Positions 48,789-64,000 of a stretch of 64,000 nucleotides of DNA are shown piece by piece. How positions within the stretch are numbered: position 1 is the first letter of the stretch; each line of letters opens with the position of its first letter. Source of the stretch: an uncultured delta proteobacterium (GTDB lineage Bacteria > Myxococcota_A > Polyangia > Fen-1088); NCBI GenBank assembly GCA_963737265.1, contig CAVTRY010000018.1, forward strand, positions 96,001 to 160,000, read 5' to 3'. Below the pieces are notes generated by a model. That model did not search any database. It was given only the letters and a program-made list of their open reading frames with translations, and was not told the DNA's origin. The position numbers and the translations under genes are program-made.

Positions 48789-49007
48789 ATGACGGGAAAA
48801 ATCCTGAAAGTGAAGACCGGCTACAACCCGAACTCGAGCAGCATCGGGGTCGACATGGTCGCCTTCTTCACCATTGGTGCGGGGATGACGGTGCTCTTCA
48901 ACCTTATCGCGACCATCATCGATGGCATCCAGGCCAAGCAGCGTGCGCGACCGGGCGAGGACAAGCAAGGCACGACGCAAGCGACGACGGAGGCGAAGCC
49001 GGCATGA
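48789..49007 (+). CDS. 72-aa GYNPNSSS-motif peptide, candidate radical SAM substrate
   Basis: AAGGAG RBS; ATGA overlap with the rSAM gene. Confidence 0.75.
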   Translation: MTGKILKVKTGYNPNSSSIGVDMVAFFTIGAGMTVLFNLIATIIDGIQAKQRARPGEDKQGTTQATTEAKPA

Positions 49008-50158
49008 GCACGCTCCGCCATCGCTTCGAATCCTTTGGCGGCATCCTGGCCCTGGAAGATCCGCCGATGCTCGTGCACGTGGACCGGGACTTCATGCGCA
49101 GCCTTGGCCATTCCGCCTGCTCGGCCTGGGAAGAGTCGGAGACAGGGCTTCTCAGCGCGCCGCTCGAAGTTCACCTCTCGGTGACGAACGCCTGTTCGCA
49201 GGGCTGCGGCCACTGCTACATGGACTCGGGGCGGAACGATGCCGGCGAACTGTCATCGGCGGAGCTCCGGCGAGCCATCGACCTGCTCGCGGACATGGGC
49301 GTGTTCCACGTTGCGCTCGGGGGCGGAGAGGCGCTGGAGCGGCCCGACCTTTTCGATCTCGCCGCGCATGTGCGGGCACGCGGCATGGTCCCCAATTTGA
49401 CCACCAATGGCGCTCTTCTGACCCGGGAGACCGCCGAGCGATGCCGTGTCTTCGGTCAGGTCAACGTCAGCATCGACTCCCTCGACGGGGGCGCGCAGGC
49501 CGGCCCGGCCGCGCGGCTAGCCGCGGTGGATCTCCTGCGGGAAGCAGGGATCCGCGTCGGCATCAATTGCGTGGTGACGCGAGAGGGTCTCGATGGGCTG
49601 GCGAACCTCATTGCGTTCGCGAAGGAGCGAGGGCTCGTCGATATGGAGCTTCTCCGGCTCAAGCCCTCAGGGCGTGGAAAGAAGGACTACTTCGAGCGGC
49701 GACTGACGCGGGCTCAGAACGAGAAGTTTTTTCCGTTCATCCGGGACCTGTCCTTGTTGCACGGCAGCTTCCCGGTGAAGATCGATTGCTCGTTCGTTCC
49801 GATGTTCTGCTGGCACCGACCGGACAAGAGCCTCATGGAGCAATTCTCGGTCTACGGGTGCGAGGCCGGTAATGTCCTCGTCGGGGTGCGTTCCGACGGC
49901 AGGTTTGCCGGCTGCTCCTTTCTGTCCGGCGAGGAATCCATCTTCGAATTGCCGGGGCTTTGGCGGACGTCGGAGCACCTGACCCGCCTGCGCGGCTGGA
50001 TCGAGCGCGCGCCCGAACCGTGCCGATCCTGCGACTATTTGGACATCTGCAAGGGGGGCTGCCGCGCGGTGGCCGCATTCGTCGTCGGCGATGCCTTCGC
50101 TCCCGATCCCGAGTGTCCGTTCGCGGTGACGATGCGCGAGCGCGGCGTGGGAGCGTGA
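49004..50158 (+). CDS. radical SAM/SPASM domain protein (PqqE/MftC-like)
   Basis: CSQGCGHC, GGGE, TTNG; SPASM CEAG..CSF..CRSCDYLDICKGGC..DPEC. Confidence 0.93.
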   Translation: MSTLRHRFESFGGILALEDPPMLVHVDRDFMRSLGHSACSAWEESETGLLSAPLEVHLSVTNACSQGCGHCYMDSGRNDAGELSSAELRRAIDLLADMGVFHVALGGGEALERPDLFDLAAHVRARGMVPNLTTNGALLTRETAERCRVFGQVNVSIDSLDGGAQAGPAARLAAVDLLREAGIRVGINCVVTREGLDGLANLIAFAKERGLVDMELLRLKPSGRGKKDYFERRLTRAQNEKFFPFIRDLSLLHGSFPVKIDCSFVPMFCWHRPDKSLMEQFSVYGCEAGNVLVGVRSDGRFAGCSFLSGEESIFELPGLWRTSEHLTRLRGWIERAPEPCRSCDYLDICKGGCRAVAAFVVGDAFAPDPECPFAVTMRERGVGA

Positions 50159-51439
50159 GCGTGCGCAGACCACGGGTTGCGGCCGTTGCGGTCTTGCTGG
50201 CGGTGCTGCTGCCGACAGCAGGCGCACCTGCATTCGCGCACGATTTGCCCATGGGAGGATCGCGCTGGAGCTTCGGTCGCAATCGGATCGTCGCCAACAT
50301 CGATCTCGGCCCCTCGCTGTTGCAGGCCATCAAGGGTATGAAGGAGTTGCGCGATCCAGTCGATCTAGTCGAGGGCCTGTCGGACGAGCAGATGCACCAA
50401 GTGGTGACCGAGATCCTCCAGCCGTATCTCGATGAGAAGCTGTCGGTCACCGAGGACGGCAAGGCGTACCCGGTGAAGGTCGATAGGCTGGTGAATAGCG
50501 GGAACGTCACCACGATCTGGATCTCGGTCGAGGGGATCCCACTCGACCTGGGGAGGCCATTCACCATCGATTACAGGCTGCTCTTCGACGAGACCGAGAA
50601 CGCGCACATCAACCTCGCCTACGGATACCTGTCCGAGGCCACCGGAGACGCTCTGAAGTCGGTGTTCGACTTCTCGCCACCCGCGATGCAATACACGTTC
50701 GAGTCGTCGGCGCACGCCTGGACGGTGATCCCCTCGGGCGCCGCCAAGATCGGGGCCAGGGCGGGCATGCAGGCCACCGCGACGCCAAGACCGGCCGTGG
50801 CCAAACCTGCCGTGGGCGTCGTGGCGGCGGTGCCGGGGGCACCCGTGTCGCCTCGCTCGATGTTGGAGGGAGATGCTCGCCAATGTAGGCCGTTTCGTCC
50901 TGCTTGGCATCGAGCACATCCTGACTGGGTACGACCACATCGCGTTCCTCGTGGCGCTTGTGGTCGTCGCCCCGTCGTTCAAAGCCGTCCTGCCCATCAT
51001 CACCGCTTTCACGGCAGCCCACAGCATCACACTGCTCCTGTCGGCCCTGCGTGTGGTCAGCCTTGACTCCAGGCTGGTCGAGTCGGCCATCGCTGTTTCC
51101 ATCTGCTACGTCGCCGTCGAGAACCTGTTTCGGAAGAAGGCCACGCGCCGCTGGCTCGTGGCTTTCTGCTTCGGGCTCGTCCACGGCTTCGGGTTCGCGA
51201 GCGTCCTGCAGAACCTGATCGTCGGGAGGGCGAATCTCGTCAGCTCGGTGGTCTCGTTCAACGTCGGCGTGGAGCTCGGGCAGCTCATGATCTTCGCCGC
51301 CCTGCTCCCATTGCTGCGCTTCCTCGCCGCGCTCATCCAGCCCCGGAAGATCACCATCGCCGCCTCGGCTGCCATCGGCCTTTTGGGGTTCATCTGGGTC
51401 CTTGAGCGGGGCTTCGACTTGAGGCTCCTGCGGCTGTGA
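50155..51439 (+). CDS. HupE/UreJ-family membrane protein with N-terminal periplasmic domain (frameshift near 50870)
   Basis: AFAHD; GIEHILTGYDHIAF, TAFTAAHSITL, FGLVHGFGFA, FNVGVELGQ; GTGA overlap. Confidence 0.88.
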
Positions 51440-51518
51440 TTACTGACCCGATTCTGTTACAGAGTCGTCGCTGATAAGTTGCAAATCGGTTCTTCAATGT
51501 GTGGTTACTGTCCGCGCG

Positions 51519-51809
51519 ATGAAAACCTTCCCCATCCATCGATCCGAGAAGCACTCATCATCCGCACACGAGACGACCCGGTGGAAGGTGGCAGTTCTGT
51601 TGGTGGGGTTCGTGTCGATCGGATGGGGCGTTGGCTGCGGTCTTGGCAGCTACGACGACCTGGGCGAGCCAGTCCCGGGACAAGGATGGCCTTGGGTCTG
51701 TCCCGAGGGAGGCGACCCGAGCTTGGACGGCGGTTGCCCACCTGCGGCGAGCATGGATGCGGCAACCGCGGACGACGCTCCAGACGCGGCCCCCGAAGGC
51801 GCGTCGTGA
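51519..51809 (+). CDS. small putative lipoprotein
   Basis: Hydrophobic stretch ending GVGC; two further Cys; stop overlaps the receptor GTG. Confidence 0.5.
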   Translation: MKTFPIHRSEKHSSSAHETTRWKVAVLLVGFVSIGWGVGCGLGSYDDLGEPVPGQGWPWVCPEGGDPSLDGGCPPAASMDAATADDAPDAAPEGAS

Positions 51810-54160
51810 GAGGATACCGCGACGTCAGCGGTCGCACGAATGGCTCATTTCATTCGATAGTGCGATTCGGAGTGCGATTCGGAGTAGCTGTCGGATTGTG
51901 CTTGGCCGCCTGCTGGTCCCGCCCAGCCGCAGCCCAGGACGGCGGGCAAGAACCGGCGCCCGAGCCGTTGGCAGGAAGCCCGGAGGTCGGCCATCCCGAC
52001 TTACTGCCAGCTCCAGCTGTCACGCAAGAGCCGGAGAGCCCCGCAGCCCGGAAGAAGGCCGCGGCGTCGATGGTGGTTTCGCCCGAGCCGGCGGTTTCGC
52101 CTGAGCCGGCCCCCGATGTCACGGTGCTGGGCGCGAGGGAGAAGACGACCGGAACGAGTGAATCCGTGCTGTCGCGACAGACGATTGCATCCCTGCCCGG
52201 GGGTGACGCTCAACCGCTTGCCTACGTGCTGGCGACTCAGCCCGGGTTCGTCGCTGACACGTTCGGTTTCGGGCTCCACGTGCGCGGCGCGGATGGCGGC
52301 TTGCTCTACGTGATCGACGGCATTCCACTTTTGGCCGCCCCACTCGGGGAATGGGGCGCCACGATGGGCTTTATCCCGACAAGGCTGGTGCAGAACCTTC
52401 GCGTCCTGACCGGCGGCTTCCCGGCGGAATTCGGTTCTGGCCTGGGTGCTGTGATCGACATAACCACGCGCCACGCTCTGGGTGGCCCATCTGGGGAAGC
52501 ACAAGCCTCGTACGGGACCTATGGCACGACCAATTACGCCCTCAATTATGCCCAGGAGATCGGAAGGCTAAGCCTCTTCGTCGCCGGCGATGTCCAGAAC
52601 ACCAACCGCGGGTTCGACCCGCCGTCGGTGACACCCATCCTTCACGACAGCATGACATCGGGCAGCGGCTTCATGCGCCTGGACTACCAGCTTCGCGAGA
52701 CCGACCACATCGAGCTCGTCACGACCTTCAATCAGAGTCGGATTCAGATCCCGATCGACCCGACGCTCTTGCCTCTATCCCAGGCCCCAGCGGGAGCGGT
52801 CCGGGGGCCCGACGTGTATGGTAACGAGCCTCCGCCCTTCGTGCCCTACGATGCAAACCCCGTCGAGACCGAACGTAATGTCTTCGCGGCGGTTTCCTAC
52901 CAGCATGCCGGTGCTGGGGGCACGTTGCAGGTTGCCCCCTTTTTCCGCGAAGCCTACGGAAAGCTCACCTGCGATCCCGCCGGATCGTTGGGGCCGACCG
53001 CGGATCCCGGCTCTTCCTGCAGCGATGTCCGCAGGGATGTCCTTCACGGAGGCGGGCTGGCCTCGCTCACATGGGCACAAGGCGAGCGGCACACCTGGAA
53101 GGCAGGCCTGCTTCTCGATGCGGCCCGCAGCAACGTGGATTACACAGCCTACTTCCGCGGCGATGCCGCTCCTTCCGGCGGCGCGGATCCGGCGCAGACC
53201 CTGTCAGGCAGCGACATCACCAACGTGCTCAACGCGGGGGCATTCCTGCAAGACCAAATCCGGCTCGGAAAGTGGCAAATCCTTGGTGGCGCCAGGCTCG
53301 ACATCGAGAGCGCGTCGTTCCTCCACAGCGACGAGCCATCGTTGTTGCTCCTCGGGCCAAGCGCGCGGCTGGGACTTAGTTACGCCGTCACGACGAGCCT
53401 CACGCTGCACGGGTTTGCCGGATACTTGTGGCAACCACCGAGCACGATAGATGCGCCCGTCGCGGCTCGCATCCTCGTTCCTTCCCTCGCCGGGCAGTCT
53501 CTTCCCGTCGATATCAAGGCGGAAAAGGACTGGTCCGCGGAGCTGGGCCTCACCGAGCGTCTACTGCGCGGTTTGACCTTGGACATCACCGCCTGGGGCC
53601 GCATCGCCAAAGATCAACTCGACCGCGTGAACGTAGGCACCACCAACCTCGTCGCCAGCTACAATTTCGAACGCGGGCGCGCCGCCGGGGCCGAAGCCTC
53701 GTGCAGGCTCAGCGGCGGCGCCAATGTCGACGGTTTCGCGAACTTGGGATGGCAGCTCGCGCAGGGCTCGGGCATCAGCTCCGAAAAATTCCTGTTCAGT
53801 CCGGACGAGATCGCTGACAAGAGCTGGGTGATGCTCGATCACGTGCAGACGTGGACCGCAAACACCGGGATCGATCTTCACGATGACCCCGCGAGCACGC
53901 ACGTGTCGGCTCTGCTGAACTATGGCAGCGGGATGCGTACCGGCGCCGACAGCGACAAGACGGTGCCGTCGCATGTGATTGTCGATCTCACGATTCGTCA
54001 CCGTTTCGATATCTTCTCGCACCTGCACCCCGAGATAGCCATCGACGTTCTCAACTTGTTCGACCAAGTCTACGCCTATCGCATTGGCACCGGCTACGTC
54101 GGCAGCGCCTACGGTCCGCTGCGGCGAGTCTTCGTGCGGCTCGCGCTTCCGTTTTCTTGA
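51806..54160 (+). CDS. TonB-dependent receptor
   Basis: LHVRG, IDGIP, TGGFPAEFG plug; NLFD; terminal RVFVRLALPFS. Confidence 0.88.
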   Translation: MRGYRDVSGRTNGSFHSIVRFGVRFGVAVGLCLAACWSRPAAAQDGGQEPAPEPLAGSPEVGHPDLLPAPAVTQEPESPAARKKAAASMVVSPEPAVSPEPAPDVTVLGAREKTTGTSESVLSRQTIASLPGGDAQPLAYVLATQPGFVADTFGFGLHVRGADGGLLYVIDGIPLLAAPLGEWGATMGFIPTRLVQNLRVLTGGFPAEFGSGLGAVIDITTRHALGGPSGEAQASYGTYGTTNYALNYAQEIGRLSLFVAGDVQNTNRGFDPPSVTPILHDSMTSGSGFMRLDYQLRETDHIELVTTFNQSRIQIPIDPTLLPLSQAPAGAVRGPDVYGNEPPPFVPYDANPVETERNVFAAVSYQHAGAGGTLQVAPFFREAYGKLTCDPAGSLGPTADPGSSCSDVRRDVLHGGGLASLTWAQGERHTWKAGLLLDAARSNVDYTAYFRGDAAPSGGADPAQTLSGSDITNVLNAGAFLQDQIRLGKWQILGGARLDIESASFLHSDEPSLLLLGPSARLGLSYAVTTSLTLHGFAGYLWQPPSTIDAPVAARILVPSLAGQSLPVDIKAEKDWSAELGLTERLLRGLTLDITAWGRIAKDQLDRVNVGTTNLVASYNFERGRAAGAEASCRLSGGANVDGFANLGWQLAQGSGISSEKFLFSPDEIADKSWVMLDHVQTWTANTGIDLHDDPASTHVSALLNYGSGMRTGADSDKTVPSHVIVDLTIRHRFDIFSHLHPEIAIDVLNLFDQVYAYRIGTGYVGSAYGPLRRVFVRLALPFS

Positions 54161-54529
54161 GCGGATTCCCGATTCGTGCTGGACGTGAACTACCTGCAAG
54201 CTGCGCGAGTTCGTTGGTTGATGCGCTGAAACGACATGGCATTGTGGTGGCCGAAATCGGCAAGGTACGCTTAAGGCGGATTTCATTGCCTACGAGGGGC
54301 GCGTTTGATCACGGGGCGCGAGTTCCGAACACTCGTGGCTAACGGCTGCACTCGCGCGCCCAATTCTGCGCGCGCTGCCGCGGCGTTTGACGGATGATTT
54401 CACGGCTCGCCAGGTGAAAGGCTGGGGTGGAGCCGGCGAAATGCTCCAACCGTCACCAAGTTGTGACGGCGCGACCTTCTCCGCGGATCCAGGAAAGACC
54501 TCGAACATTCTTCTCTACCGGAGGTCTTC

Positions 54530-57043
54530 ATGAAAACCACCGTTCCACTTTCAAGCCTGCTCCTCCCTTTCACCTTGGTCTGCGGATGCACGGAAAGTGC
54601 GCCGCTCGAACCGACCAGCAAGCCGGCCAAGGCTCTGCTTGAAGAAAACCCACGGTCGCCCGCTTCAGACGAAAACCACGAACGCCTCGATCACATCTTC
54701 TACATCATGATGGAAAACCACGGCACGAGCCAAATCATCGGCAACACTGCTGACGCGCCGACTATCAATGCACTGGCCAGCCAATATGGCCTGCTGACCA
54801 ATTACTTCGGCGTGACCCACCCCAGCCTGCCCAATTACCTCGCGGCAGTCTCGGGAGACTTTCAGGGTATCTGGGACGACTGCAAGGCGGGCTCCGATGT
54901 CACCTGCGCGCCCGAGGAATTCGTGCCCGACTCGGGCGACGCCACTTCCACGGTTCTGCTGACGCCTGCGGAAATCGCCAGCAGCGGCGCCAAACCGCAC
55001 CTCTTCGACGGGGCTAACCTGGTGGATCAGCTCGAGGCGAAGCGGCTGACTTGGAAGGCTTACATGCAGTCCATCCCGGGCGTTGGCTCGACGGTGGAAT
55101 ACGCGCCGGTGGACGTGGTCGCCGGCGTCTCCACGCCACGCAAGCTCTACGCCCAGAAGCACGATCCCTTCATGTACTTTTCGGATATCCGCAGCGATCC
55201 GAAGCGAATGCAGCGGATCGTCCCGTTCGACGGTTTCGCCCACGACCTCAAGAAGGACGACATTCCCAACTTTGTCTGGATCAGTCCCGACCAGTGCCAC
55301 GACATGCATGGCGTCTCCGCGGCCAATGCCGCCGCGGTTGGCATTCCAGACTGCGCGTCGCCCGATTCCGGATTGGATCACAAGGTCATTGCGCTCGGCG
55401 ATGCCTTCCTGAAGACGACGGTGGAAGCCATCATGCATTCGCGCGCGTGGCGCGAAAATTCGGCCATCGTCATCGCCTGGGACGAGAACGATTACACCGG
55501 GACCCAGGGCTGCTGCTCGGCGCCCCTGGGCGCGGGCGGCGATGTTCTTGGCGGCGGTCATGCGCCCGCGCTCGTCATCACCTCGCGCAACGCCCGCCAT
55601 CAGAGCGTGGACACGGCGTTCAACCATTACTCGTTGCTCGGGACCATCCAACGCCTGTGGGGGCTCGACTGCTTGGGCGCCACCTGCGGCTTCGACGATT
55701 CGTCGCTGCTGCTGGGGCTCTTCGATCCCGATGATGCTCGACACGTGCCACACGCGCACGAGGTGCTGGCACTGAGCCGCGTCCGATACGACGGCAACAC
55801 CTTCGACAATACACAAGATTACCCCCTCATCTTCACCGACCCGACAGTGACGGGCATCCAGGGCAGCATCTTCGTCGACATCGTGCCCGCCCTACCGGAC
55901 GCCTCGCCCCTGCGCACGCTTTCGCTCACGGGCATCACGACCAGCTTCAGCTCGAAATCTGAAGGCGCCTTGATGCTTTCGCAGGACCGACGGTTCCTGA
56001 CCTATATGGGCTACGCCGGCGCGGTGGGCGCGGGCGGAGTTTCCAACTCCTACGACACGGCGGCGAACCTGGCCGGCAACACCAATCCGCTCTTCGATCG
56101 CGAGGTCGCGCTCATTGCCGCCGATGGGTCGGTATCCCTGACCGCGGAATCCAATGCCTACAGCGGGGACAATCCGCGAGCGGTCGTCTCGGCCGATGGA
56201 ACGCAGTTCTACATGGCCGGCAATTCCGATTCGACCATTGCCAAAGATAGCACCGGTCCAGGAACCACCATTGGCGCTCGTTACGGCACGCCCGGCTCAG
56301 CGGTTTCCATCGAGCTTGGCGTTTACTTGGCAACAGACCGGCCCGATGAGTCCGCAAAACAACACGTCAAGGATAGTAATTTCCGAGCCATTGGGATCTT
56401 CGGCGGCAACCTGTACGTCGCCAAGGGAAGTGGCGGTAACGGCGACGACGGCGTCTTCCAAGTGCGGAACGGTACGGGCAATGGCCTCCCCCTCGGCACC
56501 GGCAATACCATCGTGCCGCTGTTCAGCGCTCCGGCGACGGATCCGGTCAGCGGGGCACCGTCGCCCTACACGCCGTTCGGATTCTGGTTCGCCAACCCGA
56601 CCACGCTGTATGTCGCGGACGAGGGCTACGCGAACGTGGATTCGAACGGCAACCTCATTCCCGATCCATTGGCCGGCCTGGAAAAGTGGAGCCTGGTCGG
56701 TGGCATCTGGCAGCTCGCCTACGCGCTCACCGCCGGACTCGATCTCTATCAACCGAAGATCGTCCCCGACTATCCGGTCGCGACCTACACGACGGGCCTG
56801 CGCAACATGACCGGCAAGGTGAACGAGGATGGCACGGTGACCATCTACGCGGTTACGTCCCAGTTCAGCTCGATCTCCGCCGGCGAGCCGGATCCCACCA
56901 GGTTGGTCACTATCCGCGATCGGCTGTCGGCAGCATCCGCACCTGCCGCAAATACCGACGACGCACTGGAGGCGTTCGTCACGTTGCAGGGATCCAAGGC
57001 GGGCGAGGTCATCCGGGGCGTCGCGTTCGTGCCCGGCAAATAG
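54530..57043 (+). CDS. lipoprotein phosphoesterase (acid phosphatase/PLC family) fused to a beta-rich C-terminal domain
   Basis: GGAGG RBS, VCGC lipobox, IMMENHG, THPSLPNY, KHDPF, HDMHG, WDE, NHYSLL. Confidence 0.85.
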   Translation: MKTTVPLSSLLLPFTLVCGCTESAPLEPTSKPAKALLEENPRSPASDENHERLDHIFYIMMENHGTSQIIGNTADAPTINALASQYGLLTNYFGVTHPSLPNYLAAVSGDFQGIWDDCKAGSDVTCAPEEFVPDSGDATSTVLLTPAEIASSGAKPHLFDGANLVDQLEAKRLTWKAYMQSIPGVGSTVEYAPVDVVAGVSTPRKLYAQKHDPFMYFSDIRSDPKRMQRIVPFDGFAHDLKKDDIPNFVWISPDQCHDMHGVSAANAAAVGIPDCASPDSGLDHKVIALGDAFLKTTVEAIMHSRAWRENSAIVIAWDENDYTGTQGCCSAPLGAGGDVLGGGHAPALVITSRNARHQSVDTAFNHYSLLGTIQRLWGLDCLGATCGFDDSSLLLGLFDPDDARHVPHAHEVLALSRVRYDGNTFDNTQDYPLIFTDPTVTGIQGSIFVDIVPALPDASPLRTLSLTGITTSFSSKSEGALMLSQDRRFLTYMGYAGAVGAGGVSNSYDTAANLAGNTNPLFDREVALIAADGSVSLTAESNAYSGDNPRAVVSADGTQFYMAGNSDSTIAKDSTGPGTTIGARYGTPGSAVSIELGVYLATDRPDESAKQHVKDSNFRAIGIFGGNLYVAKGSGGNGDDGVFQVRNGTGNGLPLGTGNTIVPLFSAPATDPVSGAPSPYTPFGFWFANPTTLYVADEGYANVDSNGNLIPDPLAGLEKWSLVGGIWQLAYALTAGLDLYQPKIVPDYPVATYTTGLRNMTGKVNEDGTVTIYAVTSQFSSISAGEPDPTRLVTIRDRLSAASAPAANTDDALEAFVTLQGSKAGEVIRGVAFVPGK

Positions 57044-57084
57044 TGGCTTCACAGTTCGGGGAGCGCTCCGGAGATCACTCAGAT

Positions 57085-57730
57085 TGAGCTAAGCCAGTTC
57101 ACCAACCTCGAAGAACAGGGCCTGGATTTGGAAGAAGTCCAGCAGGCCTACACCTTGCTGGGCGCGGACTGGCGCGAGGCGGCCAAGCAGTGGCGCGAGG
57201 CGGGCCATGAATCGCCGCCGGTCATCCTGACCGTCTGCAACCGCACCGAGACGGCCGCGCGCATCGAGCGCCACTTCGTGAAGCGCAATGCCCACTGGCC
57301 CGAGTTGCAGTCGCCGAACCAAACCCTGCGCGTGGATTCCAAGGTGTGGAGAAGGCCGAACTGGGCGAAACGGCAGGCACCGACAAGGACTACGAGAAGC
57401 GGTTGCAGGGCATCGTGGATGCCGTCCGCATTCCCGAGGAGCGCAGGCAAGAGCTGCGGGCCATGAAGAAGGAAGAGCTTCTGCGCGCCATCCTGTGGAA
57501 CGGGGCCAAGCGACGCTACATCCCCGACTTCCTGATTCACCTGACCAACGACAAGACCCTGGTGCTGGAGATCAAGGGCGAGGACAGCGAACAGAACCGC
57601 GCTAAGCTGGCCGCCATGAGCGCCTGGGTGGACGCGGTGAACGGCAAGGGCGGCTTCGGGCTAGTGCTACGATGTCGTCTACGAGATGGCAAAGATGCAG
57701 GACGTGCTGGGGTTGCGCGGGAGATAGCAT
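57085..57730 (+). pseudogene. type III restriction subunit remnant (BPTD_3080-like)
   Basis: PPVILTVCNRTETA, TLRVDSKV, then a deletion to YIPDFLI..LEIKG. Confidence 0.75.
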
Positions 57731-58074
57731 GCTGCCTGCCCGCGCACGCCGCACGAAGAAGACCGCAGCATCGCCGCGAGCGGCTCGTGCGCCGAAGAAT
57801 TCGCCTCGGAGCGACGCGCCGCTAGTCGATGTGGTTGGCGATTCGAGCACGTTCACAGCGGTGCGCGCGGAGGCTCCGGACAACCCGATGTCGACGCCCC
57901 CGAGCCACCGTGCCAAGTGGCAAAGGCGCCGGTGACGCAATCGCTCAGGCTTGCCAAGGGAGTTCCAAATGCAAAGAACACGCGCGCCAAGGACTGCTCT
58001 CTCGTGCCCCAACAACAAGGACGGTGAGTCCGAGTGGCGGCGATGTAGACGGGTGGGTTGCACGGGTCCGGGTT

Positions 58075-58990
58075 TCATGACTGGGCGGCCTGGGCTTGGG
58101 TGTGAGGCCAGAGGGCGAGCCAGGCCCCCGGGTTGTAGAAGGCAACCCTGAGCGCGACCATGGCTTCAAGGCCGACCTCGCTCCAGAGCATGCCGCCTTG
58201 CTTGCAGCGCCGGCCGACGAGGCGCTTGTTGGTGCTTTCGATGGCGGCACTGGCCAGCGGATAGCCGGCAGCATGGTATGCGGGGTAGTCCATCATGTGC
58301 TTGTGGCGGCTCAGGTAGCCGGTCAAGTCGTCGAGGGCTTTGACCGCTTGGCTGCCGGTGGAGCGCTGCCGCTCTTGGGCGAGGCCCGAGAGCACCTGGT
58401 CGACCTTGCCGTCCATGATGGCCTCGGTACGTGGCAAGACCCAAGATGGCACTGCTTTCTTGTCCGGCACGACCTTGTGACCTGCCTCCCAGACATGCTG
58501 CTTGGCGTGCTGGCAGTCGAGGATGCCAAGCAACGGCTGGTCGCAGAAGATCTCGTCGCTGTGCTCGATGAAGTAAGCGCCACCGTCGGAGACACGGACT
58601 ACCTTCTGGCGAGACAGCACGCCCTGGGTCGTGGCGGCGGCGTGCAGCTTGTGCCAAAAGCCGTCTCGGTCGTTGAGTGTTGCGACGTAGCGCCGGTCCA
58701 GCAAGACGCCTCGGCCGGGGCTCTCCTCGCAGGCGTGTTCCCCGAGGTAGGTCAGTCCCATGCACACCTCGCGGCCGGCGACCCGTGGTGAGCGCCCGGT
58801 GGGCCCCATGGGCGAGCCAGCGACCTCGGACAGGGTACTCGGCGCCTGATGGCGAAGGGCACGTTCGCCGGTCTCGCTGACCGCTGCCGACTGTGTGGCG
58901 TTCGGGACCGCAGACGGCGCCTTCGCCTCGTCGGTCGCTTTGCGCCGTGGCTCTTGTCCTGGTTTCCAGGTCAGGACGTGAACACCGTCG
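58075..58990 (-). mobile_element. ISKra4/UPF0236-type transposase, N-terminus missing
   Basis: DGVHV, SDGG, LDCQHA, MDY..GYPLASAAIES..GMLWS; the 5' part is replaced by the repeat array. Confidence 0.8.
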
Positions 58991-59405
58991 GTTCCCGGTT
59001 CCCCGGTCCGAGGGTCGTTCGCGCCTGGTTCGGTTCCCGGTCCGAGGGTCGGGTTCCCGGTTCCCTGGTTCCCGGTCCGAGGGTCATGCATGGGTTCCCG
59101 GTCCGAGGGTCGTTCGCGGGAAACGAACAACGGATCGCAGTTCCGGTTCCGGTTCCCGGTCCGAGGGTCGTTCGCGGGAAACGAACAACGGATCGCGGTT
59201 CCGGTTCCGGTTCCCGGTCCGAGGGTCGTTCGCGGGAAACGAACAACGGATCGGGCAGTCGCACGAGCCGTGGTTCGGTGGTTCCGGTCCGAGGGTCGTT
59301 CGCGGGAAACGAAACAACGGATCGGGCAGTCGCACGAGCCGTTTGGTTCCGGTCCGAGGGTCGTTCGCGGGAAACGAACAACGGATCGGGCAGTCGCACG
59401 AGCCG
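58990..59405 (+). repeat. left REP-like irregular array (8 copies of GGTCCGAGGGTC)
   Basis: Five copies extend to GTTCGCGGGAAACGAACAACGGATCG; linkers are GGTTCC(C) iterations. Confidence 0.92.
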
Positions 59406-59555
59406 CGGGCCCGGAGCAACATTCCGGTGCTACGGTGAGGCCTCCAGAATCGACAAGCAGCGATCACACGGCAAGATCTGAAGACAGAGAGGGGCCTTGT
59501 GATGTTACAAGCGGGGGCGGGGGACCGCGATTTTCATTCGATGGGGAGGCACCAG

Positions 59556-60510
59556 TTAGGCGGCGCCAGGCTCCAAGGGCGGGCGGAGGATCGCTTGCTC
59601 GACAGCTTCGGCGGCATCGCAGGCGACCTTGCCGAACTTGCGCATCCAGTAGGTGCCGAAGGGAAACACGATGTTCGCCAAACCAGCCATGTGACCCAGG
59701 AAGGCATCCCGGTATCTCTCAATGAAGCCTCGGTTGCGCAGGAGCGCCTCGATACGCGCCCACTTGTTCTTCGCGGCCACGCGCGGGCTCATCTGAAATC
59801 GTGGTGCATGGCTCTGTGGACAGTGAAAAGGATTCTGCTCTAGGATTCGGTCCCGTCCGAGCACGGTGATGCCCTTGGCGACCCGCCGCCGCTGGCGATG
59901 GTCTGCTTCCTCGGCGCGAACGCTTTCGGTAACGAGGCTGGCCCATTCGCGCTGATCGAGGTGCTGATAGCCCCGTGGCCGCGCGATGGGTAGGCTGGCG
60001 ATTTCGGGCAAGTCGCCGTCGTCGCGAAAGAAATGCTTCGGCCGCGTCGCGGCGAGTTGGCCGCCCGAAATGGTGGCCTGGAACGTGGCGACGCCAGGCC
60101 ATTCCTCGACGGTGTCGACCAGAATCCGCGGCGGTCGGATTGGTGAAAGCGTAGGTCATCTTGTCGAGGATGTCGTTGGGCTCGACCAGATGAACGACGG
60201 AGGTCGGCTCCGATGACCAGAAGCCTTCGTAGCGGCCAAGATAGGCGTTTTGGCAGCGAGCGAGTAGGCCGTGAAAATGTTCGATGAAGACGGGGAAGTT
60301 GCCATCGGGGTCGTGGATGCCGGTGTGGTGGTGGTTCGAGAGAGCCACCGAGAAGGTGACCTCCACCTTGGCCCGCCTGGCGGCCAAGGCCAGGCAGTAG
60401 ATGAAGGCATTGTTGGTGTCTTCATCCGGGCGCAGGAAGAAGCGCCGCTCGGAACAGCGGCGGGTAATCATGTAGTCACGGCCGGGCACGACCTGGCGAG
60501 GGAGGGTCAT
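59556..60510 (-). CDS. RAYT-type HUH (Y1) transposase (frameshift near 60125)
   Basis: PRQVVPG..ITRRC, SNHHH HUH motif, FW, YAFTNP catalytic Tyr, EEWPG. Confidence 0.85.
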
Positions 60511-60755
60511 GCATGGGTTCTCGGAAACGGCAGCAGAAAGTTGCGAGGGAAAGTACCCTCGGGGTGGATTTGAGGGAAAGTACCCTCGGAGGGGGATTTC
60601 GGGAGGGGGATTTCGGAAAGTACCCTCGGAGGGGGATTTTTCATCCGGGCGCAGGAAGAAGCGCCGCTCGGAACAGCGGCGGGTAATCATGTAGTCACGG
60701 CCGGGCACGACCTGGCGAGGGAGGGTCATGCATGGGTTCTCGGAAACGGCAGCAG
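60421..60755. repeat. 116-bp duplication of the RAYT 5' end (60421-60536 and 60640-60755) separated by three array units
   Basis: Identical sequence; in-frame repeat of MTLPRQ..LRPDE. Confidence 0.92.
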
Positions 60756-60868
60756 CTGCTGAGCGACAATTACATCTCCCCAAAGACGACAGCTACGTCG
60801 CCCCGCTTTGAGGCGCGACGGTGACCGTGAGGTAGACCTCCAAGCCCGCAAGCGGGCAGGAGGCACCT

Positions 60869-62369
60869 TTGAAGCCGGTCACCGACGCCCAAGTGAGGCG
60901 TTTGATGGAAGAGATGAGCAAGATTGGAAAAGTAGGCCAGGCCGCCATGAAGGCGGGCATGGACCGGAAGACAGGGCGGCGATACATCGCTGCGGGCAAG
61001 CTACCGTCGGAGCTACGGCAGCCGCGGTGGTGGCGGACGCGCCCTGACGCGTTCGCCGAGGACTGGCCAGCCGTGGCCAAGTTGCTGGAGGAAACGCCTG
61101 GGCTGGAGGCTCAGACGGTGCTGGAGCTGCTGGAGGCGAAGCAGCCAGGGCGGTACAACGAGAGCCATCTTCGGACAATGCAGCGGCGAATCCGTCGCTG
61201 GCGGGCCGAGCATGGTCCTGCGCGTGAGATTTGGTTCACGCAGGCGCATCGGCCCGGTGAAGCCGCGCAAACCGACTTCACGTCGACGGCGGAGCTTGGT
61301 GTGACGATCGTGGGCCAGCTATTTGTGCACCTTTTGTGCGTGACGGTGCTGCCGTACTCGAACTGGCAATGGGCGACCGCGTGTCTGTCGGAGTCTCTGG
61401 CAGCGCTTCGGCGAGGGATCCAGTCGGCGCTGTTCCAGCTTGGGCGGGTGCCGCGATACCACCAAACCGACCACTCGACGGCGGCGACACATCAGATCGC
61501 TCGCGATGCGGAAGATCGCACTTTCAACGATGAATACAAGGCGGTCATGCGGCACCTCGGAATGGAGCCACGAACTACAGCCGTCGGGGCCAAGGAACAA
61601 AACGGCGATGTGGAGGCCAGCAACGGCGCGCTCAAGCGTCGGCTTGAACAAGCGTTGCTGGTGCGTGGCAGCCGCGACTTCGCGGACCAAGACGACTACG
61701 AACGCTTCGTAGCCAAGGTGGTCCGCAAAGCCAACGCTTCGCGAGGCCCGCGCGTCGCCGAGGAGATCGAAGCCATGCGGCCGCTGGTGGTGGAGCGTTT
61801 GCCGGAGTACGCAGAAATGACGGCACCTGTGGCGTCGACGAGCACCATCCGGGTCAAGTCGTGCGCCTACTCGGTGCCGTCGAGGCTGATCGGCGCACGG
61901 GTGAGAGTCCGCGTGTTCGAGCACCGAATCGAGGTGTACTACGCCGACAACTTGGAATTGGCCTGCGACAGGCTGCGAGGCAAGACCGCGCGCATCGACT
62001 ACCGGCACGTCATCTGGTCTTTGGTGCGCAAGCCGGGCGCGTTTTCTCGCTACGTCTACCGAGAAGAGCTGTTTCCAAGCGTGACTTTCAGGCGGGCATA
62101 CGACGCGATCCAGGCGACCAAGCCTGGAATCAAAGGCGACGTTGAATACCTGCGCATTCTTCACCTGGCCGCCAGCACGATGGAAGCCGATGTCGAGCAA
62201 GCGCTCACGACTCTGCTTGCCGATGGGACCATCTTGACGGCGGATGCAACCAAGAAGAGATGCACACAGGCGACGGACAGTACCTATCCACCGAGCGTCC
62301 CCGCGCTCGAAGCACCGCTGGTCGATCTCCGCGTCCTACGACCTGCTCCTCGAACAGGTGGCATCATGA
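60869..62369 (+). CDS. istA: IS21 transposase (extra base near 62330 fuses it to istB)
   Basis: MDRKT HTH, QTDF, TDH, NGDVE, YSVPSRLIG. Confidence 0.92.
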
Positions 62370-63214
62370 CCAACGTCTCCGTAGACACGGTCAAGCCGAG
62401 CGCGCTCGACGCTCTGCTGGTGCTTCTGCGCGCGCTCAAGCTGCCTGCCTTCACCCGGCACGCCGAGGAGATCGCGATCAAGGCCAGCCGCGAGGGGTGG
62501 ACCTTCAGCCAATACCTCCAGCACCTGGCCGAACTGGAAATCGAAGAGCGCCGAACCCGTCGCATCGATCGCGCGCTTCGCGATTCGGACCTTCCCACGG
62601 AGAAAACCCTGGCCACCCTGGAACGTGGTCGGCTGTCACCCAAGGTGATGAAGCAGATGGCGAGCCTGTGTGAGGGTGGCTTTGTCGAACGTGGGGAGAA
62701 CCTGCTCGTCTTCGGACTGCCCGGCCGAGGCAAAAGTCACGTTGTGGCTGCCATCGGCCACGAACTCATCCGGCGCGGCTACCGGGTCCTCTTCACGCCG
62801 ACCTTCGCGCTTGTCCAGAGGCTGCTGGCCGCCAAGCGCGACCTTCGCCTGGAACGAGAACTGGCCGCGCTCGACATCTATCACGCCGTGATCCTCGACG
62901 ACATCGGCTACGTCCAGCAGAGCCGCGATGAAATGGAGGTCCTTTTCACCTTCCTGGCCGAGCGGTACGAACGCAAGAGCGTCCTCATCACCAGCAACCT
63001 GGTCTTCAGCGATTGGATCCGCATTTTCAAGGATCCCATGACCACCGCCGCCGCCATCGACCGACTGGTCCACCACGCGGTCATCCTTGAGATGACCGGC
63101 CCCAGCTACCGCAGCGAAGAAGCACGAAAGAGAGGCGTCACCACCCCAGCGACAACTACGACAACTACCGATCAACCAACGACAACTACCCCCGACAACA
63201 ATGGGGCGATGTAA
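62366..63214 (+). CDS. istB: IS21 helper ATPase
   Basis: GLPGRGKS, LDDIGY, ERYE, ITSN, IDRLVHH, GPSYR. Confidence 0.95.
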   Translation: MTNVSVDTVKPSALDALLVLLRALKLPAFTRHAEEIAIKASREGWTFSQYLQHLAELEIEERRTRRIDRALRDSDLPTEKTLATLERGRLSPKVMKQMASLCEGGFVERGENLLVFGLPGRGKSHVVAAIGHELIRRGYRVLFTPTFALVQRLLAAKRDLRLERELAALDIYHAVILDDIGYVQQSRDEMEVLFTFLAERYERKSVLITSNLVFSDWIRIFKDPMTTAAAIDRLVHHAVILEMTGPSYRSEEARKRGVTTPATTTTTTDQPTTTTPDNNGAM

Positions 63215-63267
63215 TTGACGTCACCGGGTGAATGTAGTTGACGTCCAGCAGCAGCAGAAAGTTGCGA

Positions 63268-63687
63268 GGGAAAGTACCCTCGGAGGGGGATTTTCCGGAG
63301 GGGGATTCGGGGAGGGGGATTCGGGAAAGTACCCTCGGAGGGGGATTTGGGATTTGGGATTTCGGAGGGGGATTTCGGAAAGTACCCTCGGAGGGGGATT
63401 TCCAAGAGGGGGATTCGGGAAAGTACCCTCGGAGGGGGATTTCGGGAGGGGGATTTCGGAGAGGGGAAAGTACCCTCGGAGGGGGATTTCAGGGGGAAAG
63501 TACCCTCGGAGGGGGATTTCGGAGGGGGATTTCGGAAAGTACCCTCGGAGGGGGATTTCAGGGGGATTTCTCAAGAGGGGGATTCGGGAAAGTACCCTCG
63601 GAGGGGGATTTCGAGCGGGAAAGTACCCTCGGAGGGGGATTTCGAGGGGAAAGTACCCTCGGAGGTGGATTTCCGAGGGGGATTTCC
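63268..63687 (-). repeat. right REP-like irregular array (10 copies of GGAAAGTACCCTCGGA on the + strand)
   Basis: Units GGAAAGTACCCTCGGAGGGGGATTT interspersed with partial GAGGGGGATTTC iterations. Confidence 0.95.
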
Positions 63688-63705
63688 ACAGCCTTGATTC
63701 ATCCA

Positions 63706-63735
63706 TTGACTCCTTTGCCCTTGATCCTCTACACT
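63706..63735 (+). promoter_or_regulatory. possible sigma70 promoter
   Basis: TTGACT-N18-TACACT. Confidence 0.3.
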
Positions 63736-64000
63736 GCTGCGAATCCAGCTTTTCATTGATGTGGTATCCACGACATTTCAGATCCCGACGCTGCGGATAT
63801 CGACGCCATTCATGTTACCGCGTCCGGCAAGGACGCCCCTCTGGTTGATGGGCGAAAGGCGTCACCTTCGCGCTGCACGGGCGGAGGCGCTGTGCGCGGT
63901 GAGCGCTCAATTATTCATTCGTTGATGCCGAAGAGTATTCTCGGAACAAGGGCGGGTTGTCCGTGCCTTGTCAAAACGAAACACCAGTAGAAAGCGGCTC

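Follow-up and report, generated by a model that had tools for sequence, protein, structure and literature searches.

How does a transposase gene come to lie between two arrays of short repeats that face inward, share a core sequence and look as if they had been built up unit by unit? This question is raised by an element of soil myxobacteria coding for a Y1 HUH nuclease in the stretch of DNA analyzed here, which is 64 kb long and is called the window (C18:96001-160000 of a genome of 6.55 Mb in 25 contigs, with about 63% G+C). Coordinates without a prefix are those of the window, and C11, C12, C13, C14, C16, C18, and C23 are contigs of the same genome. A preliminary description of this DNA had treated 58990-63687 as one element, a RAYT/HUH transposase gene bracketed by two iteratively built arrays, and had explained the arrays by repeated cycles of nicking, extension, and strand transfer. 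The observation itself is real and general; the interpretation, which is drawn from sequence comparison, is plausible and unproven.

Two nested arrays face the HUH gene

The HUH gene (59556-60510, minus strand) lies in a core element of about 1.23 kb (59345-60571), both tips of which are short inverted repeats around a conserved core, TCCGAGGGTAC in this lineage. The inverted 15-nt tips of the window copy agree at 13 of 15 positions. On the 3' side of the gene is the left array (58990-59344, plus strand), which is made of nested partial copies of the left tip that all begin with GGTTCC, seven of them with the core. The innermost left unit (59345-59430, plus strand) is the left terminal repeat of the element itself; it has the eighth core and continues into unique DNA. 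On the 5' side of the gene all units are on the minus strand. The leader and the innermost right unit, which has a variant core, make up the right terminal repeat (60511-60571) and are followed by three short units of 26, 14, and 28 nt (60572-60639), by the tail of one long unit that repeats the leader and the beginning of the gene (60640-60756) and, past an inserted IS21-family insertion sequence (IS) at 60757-63250, by the outer right array (63256-63687), whose units begin with (G)AAATCC and ten of which have the core.

The 9-mer TCCGAGGGT is found eight times on the plus strand at 59007-59353, and its complement has ten copies at 63276-63655 and two at 60582-60622, as well as one variant near 60555. 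Of the 139 copies in the 6.55-Mb genome, 20 are within about 4.7 kb here, which is far beyond chance; 30 shuffled versions of the 9-mer gave a mean of 66.8 hits with a range of 12-187. As many as 92 of the 139 copies fall in 18 clusters, each uniform in orientation, and the other 47 are singletons. These singletons, against the mean for the shuffled motifs, do not amount to a dispersed population of the solo core units that the preliminary description had proposed to search for. The counts and strands do bear out its claim that two inward-facing arrays sharing TCCGAGGGT flank the gene. Of the ten plus three units that it counted on the right, the ten outer ones have the core and the inner group consists of two cores and one variant.

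Tandem Repeats Finder reported overlapping periods with scores up to 441. When the arrays were split at the unit start, 17 starts were obtained in the left array, eight of them with the core, and 25 in the right array. The 25 right starts follow one another when the array is read on the minus strand with the IS21 element removed, and one long unit of about 155 nt ends inside the gene. Apart from a few bases added or changed at the junction, all units are prefixes of the innermost one, which alone enters unique DNA, as had been described. The long unit is visible in a repeat search, in which 60640-60755 is an exact copy of 60421-60536 (116 nt, 100%) with the unit stop at +137, and the units at 60537-60639 sit between these two exact copies of the 5' end of the gene. 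In the left array an 18-nt patch (59079-59096) is the same as 60504-60521 at the gene start; it was found by eye and is absent from the repeat-search list. Small differences in runs of C may be consensus errors of long reads. The IS21 element, which the preliminary description had missed, splits the right array, so that the real span of the HUH element with its arrays is about 2.2 kb, plus 2.5 kb of IS21.

Starts are fixed and stops are clustered

Unit anatomy was examined in 22 arrays with 212 units, and an earlier run had given the same picture. In 21 of the 22 arrays the units start 13-15 nt 5' of, that is outside, CCG|AGG (ACCC|GGGT in genome G027). Stops, numbered relative to this motif, concentrate near -7, 0, and +10. 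The zone from -9 to -5 holds 36 units from 15 of the 22 arrays, that from -2 to +1 holds 47 units from 18 arrays and that from +7 to +14 holds 79 units from 20 arrays; a further 25 units, from 15 arrays, stop beyond +14, and 25 stop elsewhere. The common unit is therefore about 24-26 nt long, and besides it there are half units (about 14 nt) and stutters (about 7 nt). The arrays are also polar, as 14 of the 15 with at least eight units fit the innermost unit as prefixes better inward than on the reversed string. Over all 57 flanks this prefix test is noisy, with inward the better direction in 36, because many flanks hold no real array.

The joints between units are mostly without homology. Among 52 clean distinct junctions, that is those with no extra bases, 31 have no microhomology. 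Blocks of several units have been re-duplicated, always from a unit start. The core varies with the protein lineage, and the outer 9-14 nt of the units vary even between copies, which could reflect fast drift by repeated re-copying from single founder units. At the tips a small CCC...GGG pairing and a near-palindrome around CCG|AGG can be seen by eye.

Arrays are common among homologues from other Myxococcota

Other Myxococcota assemblies gave 53 homologue loci, of which the 36 with a near-full-length match were analyzed. A flank was called repeat-rich if repeated 10-mers covered at least 15% of its 600 nt, and windows 1.8-2.4 kb away served as controls. By this measure 18 of 35 upstream and 15 of 34 downstream flanks were repeat-rich compared to 4 of 64 control windows, and some of these four are further arrays. 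The proxy is imperfect, since the upstream positive at L049 is low-complexity coding DNA. By our own tally at least one repeat-rich flank is present at 25 of the 36 loci, so that the expectation that homologues would have such arrays holds for these and fails for the other 11. Thus, arrays are common in the family but not obligatory.

Loci without arrays are in a ground state with one unit per end. One of them, L059, has an 18-nt inverted repeat and no evident target duplication, both judged by eye. In G027, where the proteins are 44% identical, the layout is the same with a different core, and copies that are near-identical in their interiors have different outer parts of the unit. A search for an empty site of one G027 copy yielded a single related genome that matched, at 72% identity, and as this match ended before the array it gave no usable empty site. 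Arrays of 10-13 units are present at L041, L054, and L072, in assemblies whose contig names suggest short-read assemblers. Their presence there argues that the structure is not an artefact of long reads. Nested arrays, which recur in homologues at 36-82% identity, are a trait of this family.

The element is mobile and its arrays also occur without the gene

The genome has four full-length copies of the element that are 92-100% identical, in the window, on C14, at C11:684840, and at C11:693766, together with an interrupted copy on C16 that is 60% identical and fragments. The window copy sits in a broken copy of an ISKra4-family element. In a patchy spread over related genomes, 20 of 41 gave matches at E<=1e-20, and the highest number in a single genome was 14. 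The element is thus IS-like, mobile, and multi-copy, and it belongs to a large family that is mainly in Myxococcota.

Two of the four full-length copies, those in the window and at C11:684840, keep both tips; in the other two the 3' part has been replaced by same-strand units of a neighboring array. The second two-tipped copy (C11:684546-686340) has the same two-array layout with the same two kinds of unit, and its left end with an array of its own is at C11:685850-686340. The C14 copy has an upstream array with 15 cores, in which a 26-nt patch copied from the gene start and, by eye, an exact duplication of about 100 nt are found. In the upstream array at C11:693090-693760 units reach about 600 and about 210 nt into the gene before the restart. 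Arrays are also present at gene-less miniature derivatives of about 110 nt, in which two inverted cores surround a spacer (C13:240300-240900 and C23:212600-213350). Their presence where there is no gene argues for an array-building activity that would act in trans.

Other observations were made at or near these copies. A stretch of about 200 nt (63773-63944 and C11:686338-686549, 72% identical) adjoins both two-tipped copies and was not found in any other part of the genome. On C11 there is no gap between it and the downstream array, and in the window it lies about 85 nt past the upstream array. It could be what remains of a larger unit, or else mark a site that the element prefers. Three more core clusters of the same orientation, with 4, 7, and 2 copies, are near short HUH gene fragments at C12:295100-299440, which looks like a graveyard of element ends. 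A tandem array at C23:537724-538300 has a unit of about 100 nt with a core-like sequence in a regular and different structure, and it may be unrelated. At L002 (C14:308900-309400) a reading frame of the group II intron type of reverse transcriptase begins, by eye, about 250 nt downstream of the HUH gene.

The protein has a RAYT-class HUH domain and a long C-terminal part

The window gene reads as shifted in frame by one extra base near 60123 when compared to the intact gene at C14:307715-308662, which codes for a protein of 316 aa (P0003). A short-read contig has the version without this extra base, and that contig could stem from another copy. The frameshift may be a real mutation or a consensus error.

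In 40 diverse homologues with 33-56% identity N59, H60, H62, D67, Y120, N124, and W137-P138-G139 are invariant and P125 is nearly so. The HUH motif, H60-x-H62, together with Y120 in a Y..NP motif places the protein in the Y1 HUH superfamily, and the Y..NP tyrosine motif is that of class 2, the RAYT or TnpA_REP class. A profile of the 40 members matched E. coli TnpA_REP (PDB 4ER8) over residues 8-138 with E=3e-4 and, weakly, ISDra2 TnpA (2XM3) with E=0.004. The Pfam family Y1_Tnp matches 13 of the 40 members; P0003 itself had no Pfam match, and its first 137 residues scored 22 bits with NCBIfam REP_Tyr_transpos, which is below the threshold of 80. Residues 140-300 or thereabouts are conserved within the family, with invariant positions that are mostly Pro, Gly, Arg, and Phe, and in profile searches these approximately 160 C-terminal residues matched nothing. 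The kind of residues conserved suggests that this part may be structural or DNA-binding and not a second active site. The protein is therefore best described, as far as motifs and profiles can tell, as a Y1 HUH nuclease domain of the RAYT class followed by these approximately 160 residues. The gene had been called a RAYT/HUH transposase gene, and the assignment to Y1 HUH is right but the protein is not a classical RAYT.

Relatives are numerous. Among 8000 scored candidates more than 2151 are relatives of P0003, and most of the 120 listed are 316 aa long. The name given by JGI to many of the listed relatives is 'REP element-mobilizing transposase RayT'. P0003 matches 3605 clusters at 50% identity, 585 of them at E<=1e-30.

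Insertion sequences and neighboring DNA in the window

The ISKra4-family element next to the left array is a 3' part with a transposase fragment (58075-58989, minus strand; NCBIfam transpos_ISKra4, E=4e-39, below the cutoff since the match is partial). It ends exactly between 58989 and 58990, the latter being the first base of the left array. Ten other ISKra4 copies in the genome are 99.6-100% identical up to base 58989 and then continue for about 840 nt more. This continuation was not found beside the HUH element of the window, and a search of the genome for the other half of the broken copy found no orphan. Since the other half was not found in the genome, no target duplication can be read for the window copy of the HUH element.

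The IS21-family element inside the right array (60757-63250, plus strand) has istA and istB, with the Pfam domains rve, Mu-transpos_C_2, and IstB_IS21 (E=2.9e-56), and is flanked by a 5-bp target duplication, GCAGC, at 60752-60756 and 63251-63255. Short-read contigs cover exactly 60757-63250, which are the limits of this IS21 element. At 62329 the window copy has one extra base compared to contigs from all four short-read runs, and istA and istB are fused into one frame of 781 aa; the extra base may be a consensus error or belong to a mutant copy. There are 19 near-full copies of this IS21 element in the genome with 99.8-100% identity. Three of them are inside copies or arrays of the HUH element (60757-63250, C11:682052-684544, and C16:268414-270905), and their target duplications, GCAGC, ACTTTC, and CCTCGT by eye, differ. 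Given the small share of the genome that HUH elements make up, this suggests that the IS21 element prefers these repeats. An Rfam scan of 56000-64000 matched no family. Upstream of the IS cluster, 49004-57043 has ordinary chromosomal genes, among them genes for a radical SAM protein, a TonB-dependent receptor, and a protein of a phosphoesterase family.

Comparison with known systems

The nearest known systems are those of RAYT and TIRYT genes. REPtrons, the units formed by RAYT or TnpA_REP genes, resemble the window element in the class 2 Y1 HUH signature (HuH and Y..NP..G.V..WP), in the profile match to 4ER8, and in having the gene between inverted copies of a short conserved sequence; tandem clusters of REPs or REPINs beside RAYT genes are also on record (PMC3116915). 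They differ in that a RAYT is a low-copy, vertically kept gene, whereas the window element is multi-copy and IS-like and its protein is twice as long. The tips of the window element have no GTAG-type REP by eye, no significant hairpin in the six tips examined, and no dispersed REP population, and the repeats are head-to-tail, nested, and variable in length instead of being doublets or alternating BIMEs. The element fails the definition of a REPtron in copy number, REP structure, and dispersed repeats.

TIRYTs are tyrosine transposase genes flanked by terminal inverted repeats (TIRs) (Di Nocera 2013, PMC3733652) and have been placed in subclass 2.1 (Quentin 2018, PMC6006769). Their TIRs can form small families that are arranged as dimers or clusters (PMC3733652, PMC6006769). 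The window element is like a TIRYT, or 'TIRtron', in having a RAYT-like Y1 gene with a C-terminal extension between terminal inverted repeats that are not REPs. It is unlike them in that inspection of these tips by eye did not reveal the GGGGWSAS motif reported for the majority of TIRYT repeats and in that the median length reported for subclass 2.1 is 238 aa, as opposed to about 300-316 aa here. Nested polar arrays are not mentioned in the portions of the published description of TIRYTs available to us.

Members of the IS200/IS605 family, such as IS608 and the ISDra2 TnpA system, are similar in that they are multi-copy and mobile and have a Y1 HUH transposase. However, they have a protein of about 150 aa with a Y...Q motif, subterminal hairpins, and no inverted terminal repeats (PMC6006769), in contrast to the Y..NP motif, the inverted tips, the lack of hairpin support, and the reiterated ends found here. 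The chemistry that we propose below, a site-specific nick, a covalent 5' link, extension of the 3'-OH, and rejoining, is shared with rolling-circle systems. Rolling-circle systems, among them the Rep proteins of plasmids and single-stranded DNA (ssDNA) viruses, IS91, Helitrons, and Replitrons, use Rep-type or Y2 enzymes, often with helicases. Replitrons have 'fuzzy' ends of variable length that come from imprecise end processing (PMC10288648). In the rolling-circle systems, unlike here, imprecision captures flanking DNA at one end and does not give nested partial tips at both ends.

Repeats that are reiterated locally beside genes of this kind are not new. What a search of the literature available to us, the supplementary member and repeat lists of PMC6006769 and PMC3733652 lying outside it, did not bring to light is an account of an IS-like Y1 element both tips of which have nested, polar arrays with one fixed start and variable stops, or of the use of such arrays to infer the points of breaking and joining.

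How the arrays may have been built

The explanation that we favor is that the enzyme of this IS-like RAYT/TIRYT relative nicks at the unit start, the tip is re-copied and the strand is rejoined to give a tandem partial duplication; judged by the DNA and protein comparisons above, we consider that this stands about an even chance of being correct. The enzyme would cut a single strand, always 13-15 nt outside CCG|AGG, and remain attached to the 5' end of the tip by its tyrosine. A host polymerase would extend the free 3' end and thereby re-copy the tip inward, and this copying would usually halt at the bound site or shortly after it, near -7, 0, or +10, and occasionally after 30-600 nt. The 5' end held by the enzyme would then be rejoined to the new 3' end. 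One strand would gain an extra partial tip in this way, which replication would turn into a tandem duplication with a fixed start and a variable end. With a new site in every added unit, the cycle could be repeated, on one strand at one end of the element and on the other strand at the other end. Copy-out transposition that was aborted may have left the arrays as scars.

Several features of the arrays are those expected from this scheme. A break that always falls on the inward-reading strand and keeps its distance from a core specific to the lineage points to the element's own nuclease, and the co-variation of the core with the protein lineage is as expected of a recognition site. Joints that are mostly without homology suggest rejoining rather than annealing, whereas the templated patches and the long units suggest that DNA synthesis is involved. 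The exact duplications, of 116 nt in the window and about 100 nt on C14, indicate recent growth of the arrays. There is also a precedent for the last step, because TnpA_REP in its covalent complex can link the 5' end that it holds to the 3'-OH of an oligonucleotide of unrelated sequence, of which only the last base matters (PMC8266576). The fixed start and the many junctions without microhomology thus fit the nick, extension, and transfer cycles of the preliminary description, but the stops cluster and its 'variable length' is too simple.

Other findings weigh against nicking, re-copying, and rejoining. HUH Y1 enzymes act on single strands that are presented by hairpins, and hairpin prediction at six tips was not significant (z from -1.6 to +0.6). 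Microhomology of at least 2 nt is somewhat enriched, in 10 of 52 junctions compared to 45 of 580 possible positions, and many junctions carry 1-8 extra bases that are unexplained. The units are not independent, because blocks of them were re-duplicated, and their counts overstate the evidence. The short-read contigs of four runs of one study break at the arrays, and the 11 homologue loci without a repeat-rich flank have to be counted here as well. Finally, the stops are clustered and not smooth, as the run length of a polymerase would be, and secondary cleavage sites could explain them without any synthesis.

This last point leads to an explanation by cutting and joining alone. Cleavage on the same strand at the unit start, at CCG|A, and at about +10, with exchange between units or sister chromosomes, would add head-to-tail insertions of a whole unit (about 24-26 nt) or half a unit (about 14 nt), much as if a miniature REP were mobilized to a place beside itself. 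The stops at -2 to +1 and +7 to +14, in 18 and 20 of the 22 arrays, and the lack of microhomology at most clean junctions are in keeping with it, and in vitro TnpA_REP does cleave on the 5' as well as the 3' side of its REP (PMC8266576). We nevertheless regard it as unlikely. The 25 of 212 units that stop scattered beyond +14, up to about 600 nt inside the gene, would need arbitrary free 3' ends, the patches templated from the gene start imply synthesis, and dispersed solo units are not found (47 singletons as against about 67 expected from shuffled motifs). Synthesis could instead be the work of host repair, with no more than the nick made by the enzyme: the replication fork would run off there, and its broken end, on invading the sister again at a slightly shifted position, would copy the tip a second time. 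A fixed start with a variable stop, the enrichment of microhomology and the patches, which resemble template switches, would all be explained, and short tandem duplication induced by nicks has been described in eukaryotic cells (bioRxiv 10.1101/2024.02.20.581123). It is the 31 of 52 clean junctions without any microhomology, together with stutters of 7-8 nt and tight stop zones that re-invasion would not be expected to leave, that make this explanation an improbable one.

Slippage or unequal recombination on a repeat-prone and partly palindromic sequence would need no enzyme, and its products might be selected as extra binding sites. Once two units are present unequal exchange can alter their number, and blocks of several units have indeed been re-duplicated; in Pseudomonas, ordered tandem REP or REPIN clusters, three of them beside RAYT genes, have been ascribed to a 'second mechanism' (PMC3116915). 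But slippage cannot make new stop points without homology, which 31 of the 52 junctions lack. Nor would it bind the pattern to both tips of one family, at 36-100% protein identity, and to its miniature derivatives, or keep constant the distance from the start to a core that changes along with the protein, and the controls rarely show the pattern (4 of 64). As the origin of the arrays it is very unlikely. That noisy long reads were misassembled in a repeat is hardly credible at all. The genome does look long-read assembled, with 25 contigs of which the largest is 1.4 Mb, no read spanning an array was seen, short-read contigs cover the interiors of the arrays little or not at all, and the one-base differences from these contigs at 60123 and 62329 hint at consensus errors. 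However, the same architecture is found in at least five other assemblies, three of which (those of L041, L054, and L072) appear from their contig names to be of the short-read type, the internal logic of the arrays is consistent across loci, and one short-read contig shows no difference from 63617-63900, the outer 70 nt of the right array included.

Some further ideas about the arrays were dropped. A conserved REP-like stem-loop at the tips was abandoned as the six tips gave no significant hairpin. The outer 9-14 nt of the window copy were considered as captured target DNA, but ISKra4 does not continue into the outermost left unit, and the outer parts of other copies are similar. The insertion of whole copies into one another was rejected as the source of the arrays, the upstream units being short prefixes and the downstream ones short suffixes.

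What the arrays mean for the family

HUH Y1 enzymes of the RAYT class are widespread, and how they move or multiply their repeats has not been settled. At the elements studied here the DNA appears to record the events themselves, with a fixed break, preferred points of rejoining, and occasional long copies, hundreds of times and at many loci. The arrays predict the cut site, 13-15 nt outside CCG|AGG, and the ends that are joined, for a family of more than 2000 proteins. If nicking, re-copying, and rejoining is indeed the mechanism, it would explain the origin of the tandem repeat clusters beside such genes and the enzyme would be a natural one by which short tandem duplications, copied from a template, are introduced at a defined site. 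A bolder proposal, which we put forward tentatively and think doubtful, is that the enzyme is a site-specific 'tandem duplicator', in which each cycle of nicking, copying, and rejoining adds one copy of the recognition site beside the old one, and that the arrays are functional spare ends. If this is the case, then the activity would be one not yet described for HUH enzymes, a natural writer of DNA that works by nicking, copying, and rejoining, and the spare ends would buffer the element against erosion or raise its frequency of transposition, a telomere-like solution for a transposon.

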